Part shown: positions 7,683-7,944 of the stretch, piece after piece | Layout of the letters: every line of letters begins with the position of its first letter | Position numbering within the stretch: the stretch's first letter is position 1 | Made by a program: the position numbers and the translations under genes | The notes under the pieces: generated by a model | The model's database searches: none | What the model saw: the letters and a program-made list of their open reading frames with translations, nothing else | Told to the model about the DNA's origin: nothing | Source: Alteromonas naphthalenivorans | GTDB lineage: Bacteria > Babelota > Babeliae > Babelales > CAIQNR01 | Assembly: GCA_047631715.1 (NCBI GenBank) | Contig: JBLICC010000010.1 | Span: 1-22,641 of the forward strand | Reading direction: 5' to 3' | DNA: 22,641 nucleotides

Positions 7683-7944
7683 CCCTTCGATACAACTACC
7701 TAGTGGTGCCCACTCGGGATGAACCAATAAATATTAGTTATAATAACTATAGAGTCATACTGCCGTGCCCGGCGACCGTGTCCGCCATAGCCTTTGGCGA
7801 CGGCTGGAAGCTTTATGCGAAGCCTGGGAGTGATTCTGTTAAGAATAGTATCGAAGGACGGGATGAACTTTATACTTTGTTATTGTAACTATTAAAATTT
7901 ATTGGTTCATCTCGAGTGGGCGCCAAAGGCGGTTGTATCGAGAG
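7683..7944. repeat. REPIN-like composite: long imperfect inverted repeats (about 7683-7747 and 7879-7944) enclosing a triple-nested palindromic element (7752-7857)
   Basis: CCCTTCGATACAAC...GCCCACTCGGGATGAACCAATAAAT is mirrored in reverse complement at 7897-7944. The inner part matches 12235-12267 and the reverse complement of 13853-13926. Confidence 0.85.

Follow-up and report, generated by a model that had tools for sequence, protein, structure and literature searches.

Positions 7752 to 7857 of the window, i.e., the 22,641-nt stretch of DNA analyzed here (contig C10 of an 845-kb genome that is 90% complete and has 36% G+C), hold a hairpin inside a related hairpin inside a third repeat. This triple nest raises the question of whether units so short are mobile and, if so, what moves them. 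The genome belongs to the phylum Babelota (Dependentiae), since the sources name the proteins of its relatives Candidatus Babeliales or Dependentiae. An earlier reading of the window from its letters alone (the sequence-only reading) had proposed a very small nonautonomous mobile element that nests in its own family and is mobilized in trans; the sequences that it quoted do occur where it placed them, and precise junctions together with empty and filled sites support the proposal. The nest is flanked by a tlyA-like methyltransferase gene (7961 to 8692, minus strand) and a gene with no Pfam match, and a class II glycyl-tRNA synthetase-like gene lies at 14074 to 15399. The window further contains a family of low-complexity proteins, arranged in tandem (888 to 7251 and 12327 to 13682), whose starts are alike and resemble signal peptides, and four membrane-protein genes in tandem (18086 to 22187), with a weak EamA match in one of the two scanned.

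We parsed the nest on the minus strand. The inner unit (7776 to 7808; 33 nt, T-form), a hairpin with a 5-nt tail, splits a middle unit of the same family and of another variant, also of 33 nt (7763 to 7828, in the two parts 7828 to 7809 and 7775 to 7763), and the latter interrupts a REP-like outer host repeat (7857 to 7829 and 7762 to 7752) whose GTCA-type tag lies on the plus strand. When the inner unit is excised in silico, the middle unit matches five other copies in the genome with at most one mismatch. The outer repeat stripped of both units has no match in the genome within four mismatches and is therefore taken to be a chimera of two host halves. An empty host repeat on the plus strand (7683 to 7725) is the inverted partner of the nest, and another on the minus strand (7903 to 7944) lies at the end of the tlyA-like gene. 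In a second nest (12187 to 12294, minus strand), a 33-nt inner unit (12236 to 12268, minus strand) sits within a diverged unit-like insert (12286 to 12269 and 12235 to 12222) in the 5' arm of the host repeat, i.e., not at the usual insertion site. On the plus strand, a host repeat at 13853 to 13926 carries an intact 33-nt middle unit at 13883 to 13915 (previously placed at 13884 to 13916); its rebuilt empty junction, with 29 nt on the left and 10 nt on the right, occurs twice more in the genome, giving two empty paralogues. The triple nests and intermediate states of the sequence-only reading were thus recovered, with the amendments that the middle unit of the second nest is diverged and lies elsewhere in its host and that the first outer repeat is chimeric. 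The unit pattern matched the window twice and none of 100 shuffles of it. Contigs from sequencing run X1, possibly the source sample, cross the inner junctions without differences (7714 to 7808 and 7782 to 7832). Contigs lacking the 33-nt inner unit were seen in runs X1 and X2, one with 64 nt of the flank of this locus (two differences) and no paralogue in the assembly; as their short side spans 29 nt, they fit an allele, an unassembled paralogue, or a relative alike.

The outer repeat had been read as a relative of the unit, but it is a different family, which pairs with another group of nucleases (see below). It has 73 empty copies in this genome against none in five shuffled genomes, and host repeats occupy about 0.3% of the sequence. 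Inverted dimers account for 24 of 31 close pairs, one end is tag-like (GTCA type), and an inner hairpin varying from 6 to 32 nt forms the loop. Empty copies enter mutS, dnaX, a TonB-domain gene, and a Mur ligase gene in frame (G000:C1:89595, C2:13664, C2:2191, C12:10545, and C12:10625, where G000 is the genome under study and C numbers are its contigs). Outer repeats also lie inverted inside other outer repeats (G000:C1:89798, C14:640, C17:14948, and C23:4159; 7858 to 7870 in the window). The corresponding intergenic space in a genome of the same genus (G001) spans about 100 nt and is free of repeats, and the host-repeat pattern was not found in searches of G001 to G004 and G006; the repeats have therefore expanded recently in this lineage. 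The low-complexity family copy at 12327 to 13682 has a repeat nest at either side and is absent from the interval that separates glyS from the htrA-like gene in G001, and the repeats may mark or mediate movement of the gene.

The genome under study holds 11 units, nine of them at one and the same host bond (ACT^CAG) and two inside unit-like sequences; none lies inside a real gene of this genome, and long open reading frames over units at G000:C14, as at L115, L118, and L124, look spurious. Unit ends are asymmetric, with a start of pyrimidine-CCAG and a tail of C-N(2-4)-G. Among 141 distinct unit contexts, we used for junction statistics the 104 with one of six common tails (CAGG in 56 and CACGG in 20) and set aside the other 37. 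Unit length in these is 31 nt in 58, 32 nt in 34, and 33 nt in 12, in a sample biased toward the short-loop variant used as the query, so that a fixed 33-nt step does not hold. The parse as a 32-nt unit with a 1-nt duplication likewise gave way: the base preceding CCAG changes in step with the purine of the stem (n = 151: C-G, 70; T-A, 51; C-A, 16; T-G, 3; other, 11), and T follows T-starting units in only 10 of 38 cases (C in 21, G in 4, A in 3), so the pyrimidine belongs to the unit and a duplication is unneeded. Units that start with C are followed by C in 57 cases, G in 3, and T in 2; among the C/T cases, T is enriched after T-forms (10/31 versus 2/59; Fisher P = 3 × 10−4), which fits what is expected of pairing over one to two bases. 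An empty 9+9-nt junction was found elsewhere for 23 contexts, of which the four that discriminate (L011, L024, L098, and L174) all assign the pyrimidine to the unit; another context (L145) agrees with neither parse. The target is loose, with T (64) or A (27) before the site and C (81) or T (12) after it, followed by A/C, G, and G, and there is no fixed 4- to 5-nt motif. Polarity is fixed, with the host 3' end on the unit strand in 57 cases versus 8. Internal loops are purine rich on one strand (GAA, GTA, and ATA; 29 hairpins), which suggests sheared G-A pairs in the hairpin. Standard DNA folding, whose model does not include such pairs, favors neither the proposed stem nor a strand: the inner unit prefers another pairing (z of about −2.3 on both strands), and the middle unit has z of about −0.1 to −0.7. 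A call of the working strand therefore rests on loop composition and analogy. Stable hairpins as a general target were considered and dropped, as rebuilt empty sites had a mean z of −1.18 versus −0.75 in controls, a weak difference.

Searches across the phylum matched the inner variant in 27 and the middle variant in 24 of 261 genomes, with none for the reversed-pattern controls, and the inner variant also in 109 metagenome loci. Three viral contigs (L175 to L177) carry unit variants, a possible route of transfer. A GTDB-wide scan with a 29-nt exact pattern recovered only two loci, and the breadth outside Babelota is thus poorly measured. The 141 contexts, which are not independent events, comprise 40 at the canonical host site, 22 at other sites of host-type repeats, 10 in the unit family, 7 in SRM-type repeats, 4 in the tag of such repeats, 4 in cassette arms (see below), and 54 unclassified. 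Of 994 random positions, 12% landed in one or another of these classes, with none at the canonical site. Nesting goes both ways: at L364 a middle unit lies within an inner-type unit, and at L005 an inner unit lies within an inner-type unit. In-frame copies in coding sequences and empty versus filled orthologous sites, both prospects raised by the sequence-only reading, were found. In nurA (PF09376), a 33-nt unit in G154 forms an 11-residue in-frame insert; the site is empty in G155, whose protein is 81% identical to that of G154, and holds two other unit variants in tandem in G156, and the remaining 12 of the 15 homologues have no insert, so that the G154 insert is absent from 13 of them. A RAYT-like gene has terminal repeats that hold units at two positions in G170 and G171 and none in G169 and G021. 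Such empty and filled sites in nurA and the RAYT-like terminal repeats establish that the unit is mobile. Other in-frame units, read from open reading frames rather than homologue alignments, lie in WD40 repeat, inositol monophosphatase, and glycosyltransferase frames. In nurA of genus g86 (L215 and L216), a second insertion hotspot holds in-frame outer repeats and units.

A link between the repeats and a GIY-YIG gene, another prospect raised earlier, emerged in relatives. Metagenome locus L084 consists, in order, of tRNA-Glu, a hairpin that starts in the CCA of the tRNA, a spacer, an inverted copy of the inner hairpin, and a gene for an 80-aa GIY-YIG protein (PF01541; best PDB matches to SLX1, E = 2.6 × 10−4). 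The inner unit of the window equals the cassette hairpin at 25 of 26 aligned hairpin positions. The protein has matches in 179 of the 261 genomes, with a patchy distribution and up to 10 copies, and NCBIfam has no family for it. Inverted arms of 10 nt precede the gene in 41 of 57 loci (two of these being one overlapping locus), in 11 covarying variants, against 0/57 downstream and 0/1,140 in shuffled controls. Both hairpins precede the gene and often follow a tRNA, with 27 of 56 cassettes having a tRNA that ends no more than 330 nt upstream. Cassettes away from tRNAs (L180, L185, L144, and L168) are often preceded by a short hairpin with a tRNA-like GCCA at its end, possibly a mimic of the tRNA 3' end. 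Unit-type hairpins occur within 300 nt of 42 of 49 SLX1-like loci, a count that is partly circular because the pattern was written after the cassettes had been viewed, as against 5 of 30 UPF0213-like and 0 of 12 IS200-type loci. The tails of the left cassette hairpins (n = 40; CACGG in 12, CAGG in 10) match those of free units. The sequence-only reading had allowed for composites being deletion derivatives of one longer element; the unit can indeed be traced to something longer, namely, the hairpin of the nuclease cassette, and the composites themselves are insertions. At the genome level, nuclease and unit do not co-occur significantly (22 of 27 unit-bearing versus 157 of 234 other genomes; P = 0.19). 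The genome under study has a relic left hairpin after tRNA-Glu (G000:C48), and a search with all three nuclease types discussed here found no GIY-YIG gene or remnant in its 90% complete assembly, relaxed TBLASTN returning unrelated weak matches only; we infer that the nuclease was lost or is unassembled. Adjoining the first nest, a GC-rich, hairpin-rich stretch of about 220 nt (7400 to 7625) is nearly unique in the genome and contains a motif resembling the cassette hairpin.

Two further types of small GIY-YIG proteins occur in the phylum, the three forming separate groups. One is closest to UPF0213 structures (E = 2 × 10−12) and is found in 79 of 261 genomes; the outer repeat flanks it in 13 of 30 loci. 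At L301 to L330, such genes lie between inverted outer-type repeats in up to five copies per genome and fall outside the Ssn clade. The other has SRM-like repeats as flanks. A tree puts the 14 unit-linked and the 4 SRM-flanked rows in separate groups, each at 100/100, with the unit-linked group long branched; the four SRM-flanked proteins are called Ssn-like from their flanks.

Together, these findings lead us to consider, at about even confidence, that the units are nonautonomous offshoots of the SLX1-like cassette, whose nuclease would nick a single-stranded hairpin and thereby allow a brief template switch to copy a unit in. By analogy with SsnA, a small GIY-YIG protein that cuts single-stranded DNA a few bases upstream of its own hairpin and on one strand only (PMC11893778), the SLX1-like nuclease would nick hairpin DNA in single-stranded form, with the purine-rich-loop strand (plus at 7776 to 7808) as the probable working strand. 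The nicked target end would then pair over one to four bases with the donor just past its tail, and synthesis would proceed through the hairpin and return at the base of the stem. Since GIY-YIG domains are, to our knowledge, hydrolytic nucleases with no known strand transfer, host enzymes would have to complete the insertion after the nick. Once a host is filled, conversion would spread the unit among host copies, a step supported by the upstream base shared by all seven middle copies. Counting against this explanation are the lack of a GIY-YIG gene in the genome under study, the nonsignificant co-occurrence of nuclease and unit, the partly circular flank pattern, the weak folding difference at rebuilt empty sites, and the 54 of 141 contexts that fit no host class. 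More tentatively, and at somewhat less than even confidence, at least three subfamilies of small single-domain GIY-YIG proteins may each propagate their own hairpin without a transposase, with the 31- to 33-nt unit of the SLX1-like subfamily hyperparasitizing the hairpins of the other two and those of RAYTs.

Of the other explanations, the one that survives best, although we think it unlikely, is that homing-like conversion dominates: de novo insertion would be rare, either independent of an enzyme or due to the cognate nuclease of the host repeat (UPF0213-like, Ssn-like, or RAYT) nicking that repeat, and repair from filled copies would multiply the composite. All seven middle-variant copies of the genome under study agree in the base 5 nt upstream (TCACT), which 31 of the 73 empty hosts share, a coincidence with a chance of about 0.003 if the copies were independent, which points to shared descent or coconversion. 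One RAYT-like gene (L335) has the same insertion in both terminal repeats, a single canonical host site makes up 40 of 141 contexts, and the hosts are cognate repeats of other nucleases. Yet the same site holds different unit variants in different species (nurA and RAYT repeats), the hosts in this genome hold three unit variants, and insertions are also found in unique coding DNA, so that new insertion events are needed.

An HUH transposase of the IS200/RAYT-like kind, the candidate put forward by the sequence-only reading, would excise the unit as single-stranded DNA and paste it without duplication. Its chemistry suits the precise ends, fixed polarity, and lack of an obligatory duplication, and 94 of the 261 genomes have Y1 genes. 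In one Babelota genus, RAYT-like genes (L332, L333, L335, and L337) carry terminal inverted repeats of 50 to 100 nt, each of two hairpins. Among the 32 Y1 loci inspected out of several hundred, the unit is found at 0 of 12 IS200-type and 2 of 20 weaker loci, and in both of the latter it is an insertion in terminal repeats whose counterparts in sister genomes G169 and G021 are empty. Together with the lack of co-occurrence (11 of 27 versus 83 of 234 genomes; P = 0.67), the absence of a fixed 4- to 5-nt target, and a search of the genome under study that found no Y1 gene, this makes such a transposase improbable as the mover.

We consider still less probable an RNA or cDNA route, in which cassette hairpins cotranscribed behind tRNA genes would yield a reverse-transcribed or RNA-templated piece that patches nicks. 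An RNA intermediate has reportedly been proposed for the short SDR repeats of cyanobacteria. In the present system, 27 of 56 cassettes begin at a tRNA 3' end, the unit starts with the CCA of that end, and RNA intermediates have been proposed for yeast GC clusters (PMC4478555), but an Rfam search of the window returned no match. An equally low probability attaches to nests made without a dedicated enzyme, by slippage and template switching among GC-rich hairpins of an AT-rich genome, as might be thought from the inverted dimers and chimeras of the outer repeats and the lack of a nuclease gene in this genome, for the same unit with the same ends recurs in 27 and 24 scattered genomes, 109 metagenome loci, and 3 viral contigs, in unrelated hosts, and is missing from sister genome G001.

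Whichever way it moves, the unit with its cassette has no description in the literature searched (subscription papers and bioRxiv supplements apart), and we regard it as a real and mobile variant, undescribed in that literature, of palindromic repeats linked to a nuclease. It works like REP-RAYT or SRM-Ssn pairs, is said to share its nesting with cyanobacterial SDRs, and fails membership of each. Nostoc SDR1 and SDR4, reportedly described by Elhai et al. in 2008, are said to be very small structured repeats of 21 to 27 nt, confined to cyanobacteria, that insert into other repeats and their own copies, and we know of no enzyme for them. Like these, the unit self-nests (inner in middle, middle in inner-type, and inner in inner-type); going by that description, its length of 31 to 33 nt and its occurrence in Babelota set it apart from them. 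The unit is also much shorter than Rickettsia palindromic elements, and frame keeping is not built into it (33 nt in 12 of 104 contexts); the trait in common is in-frame insertion into genes of an intracellular bacterium (PMC3733652).

The Ssn/NTS-SRM system (Chenal et al. 2025, PMC11893778) likewise joins a single-domain GIY-YIG gene to oriented hairpin repeats; in the accessible text, its authors suggest an IS-like origin, the hairpins multiply in host-associated bacteria, and repeat mobility, nesting, or empty sites are not described. In contrast to this family (cd10448), the unit has neither a CGTC/GTCA tag nor the SRM stem, true SRM-type repeats being among its hosts; the proteins linked to it lie outside the SRM-flanked group of the same phylum; and both hairpins of its cassette are upstream of the gene, often behind a tRNA. 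The outer repeat resembles REP/REPIN-RAYT elements and CGTC REPs (PMC3733652 and PMC3116915) in its tag, inverted dimers, and entry into genes. Some REPs are reported within other palindromes, and CGTC REPs have been listed without a link to a transposase. The CGTC-tagged REP is described as having the tag at one end, an 8- to 9-bp stem, a 4- to 5-nt loop, and head-to-head dimers; the outer repeat has the tag-like end and the dimers, its loop varies from 6 to 32 nt, and it flanks a UPF0213-like nuclease. Unlike REP/REPIN-RAYT elements, the unit lacks a GTAG or CGTC tag at its ends, GTAG lying inside the hairpin where present, and it moves as a single 31- to 33-nt hairpin rather than a doublet and invades RAYT repeats. 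Yeast mitochondrial GC clusters and fungal double-hairpin elements are similar in being GC-rich palindromes that move, merge, and shuffle in AT-rich DNA; as described in PMC4478555, they are organellar, with putative target duplications and endonucleases proposed as helpers, and have no cognate nuclease cassette flanked by hairpins. Finally, a deletion derivative of a DDE-type IS or MITE is at odds with the asymmetric, tailed ends and with the 28 of 38 T-starting units not followed by T, and a nonautonomous IS200/IS605 element, which would share the fixed polarity and lack of target duplication, is at odds with the loose target and with a hairpin shared by 0 of 12 TnpA loci.

How repeats of less than 40 nt (Rickettsia palindromic elements, SDRs, CGTC REPs, and GC clusters) spread, nest, and enter genes in frame is a long-standing question that stayed open because no enzyme was in hand. 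Here, a unit with defined ends, empty and filled alleles, and a target bias comes with an 80-residue candidate enzyme and its cognate hairpin, and the question therefore becomes testable with oligonucleotides. The findings extend the Ssn idea to two more GIY-YIG subfamilies, each with its own repeat, and may offer a tiny tool for nicking or writing single-stranded DNA. If enzyme-driven spread holds, the unit would rank among the smallest mobile DNA elements, and if several subfamilies do act in this way, they would constitute a new minimal class of mobile DNA that writes short defined sequences, 11-codon inserts included, into genomes.
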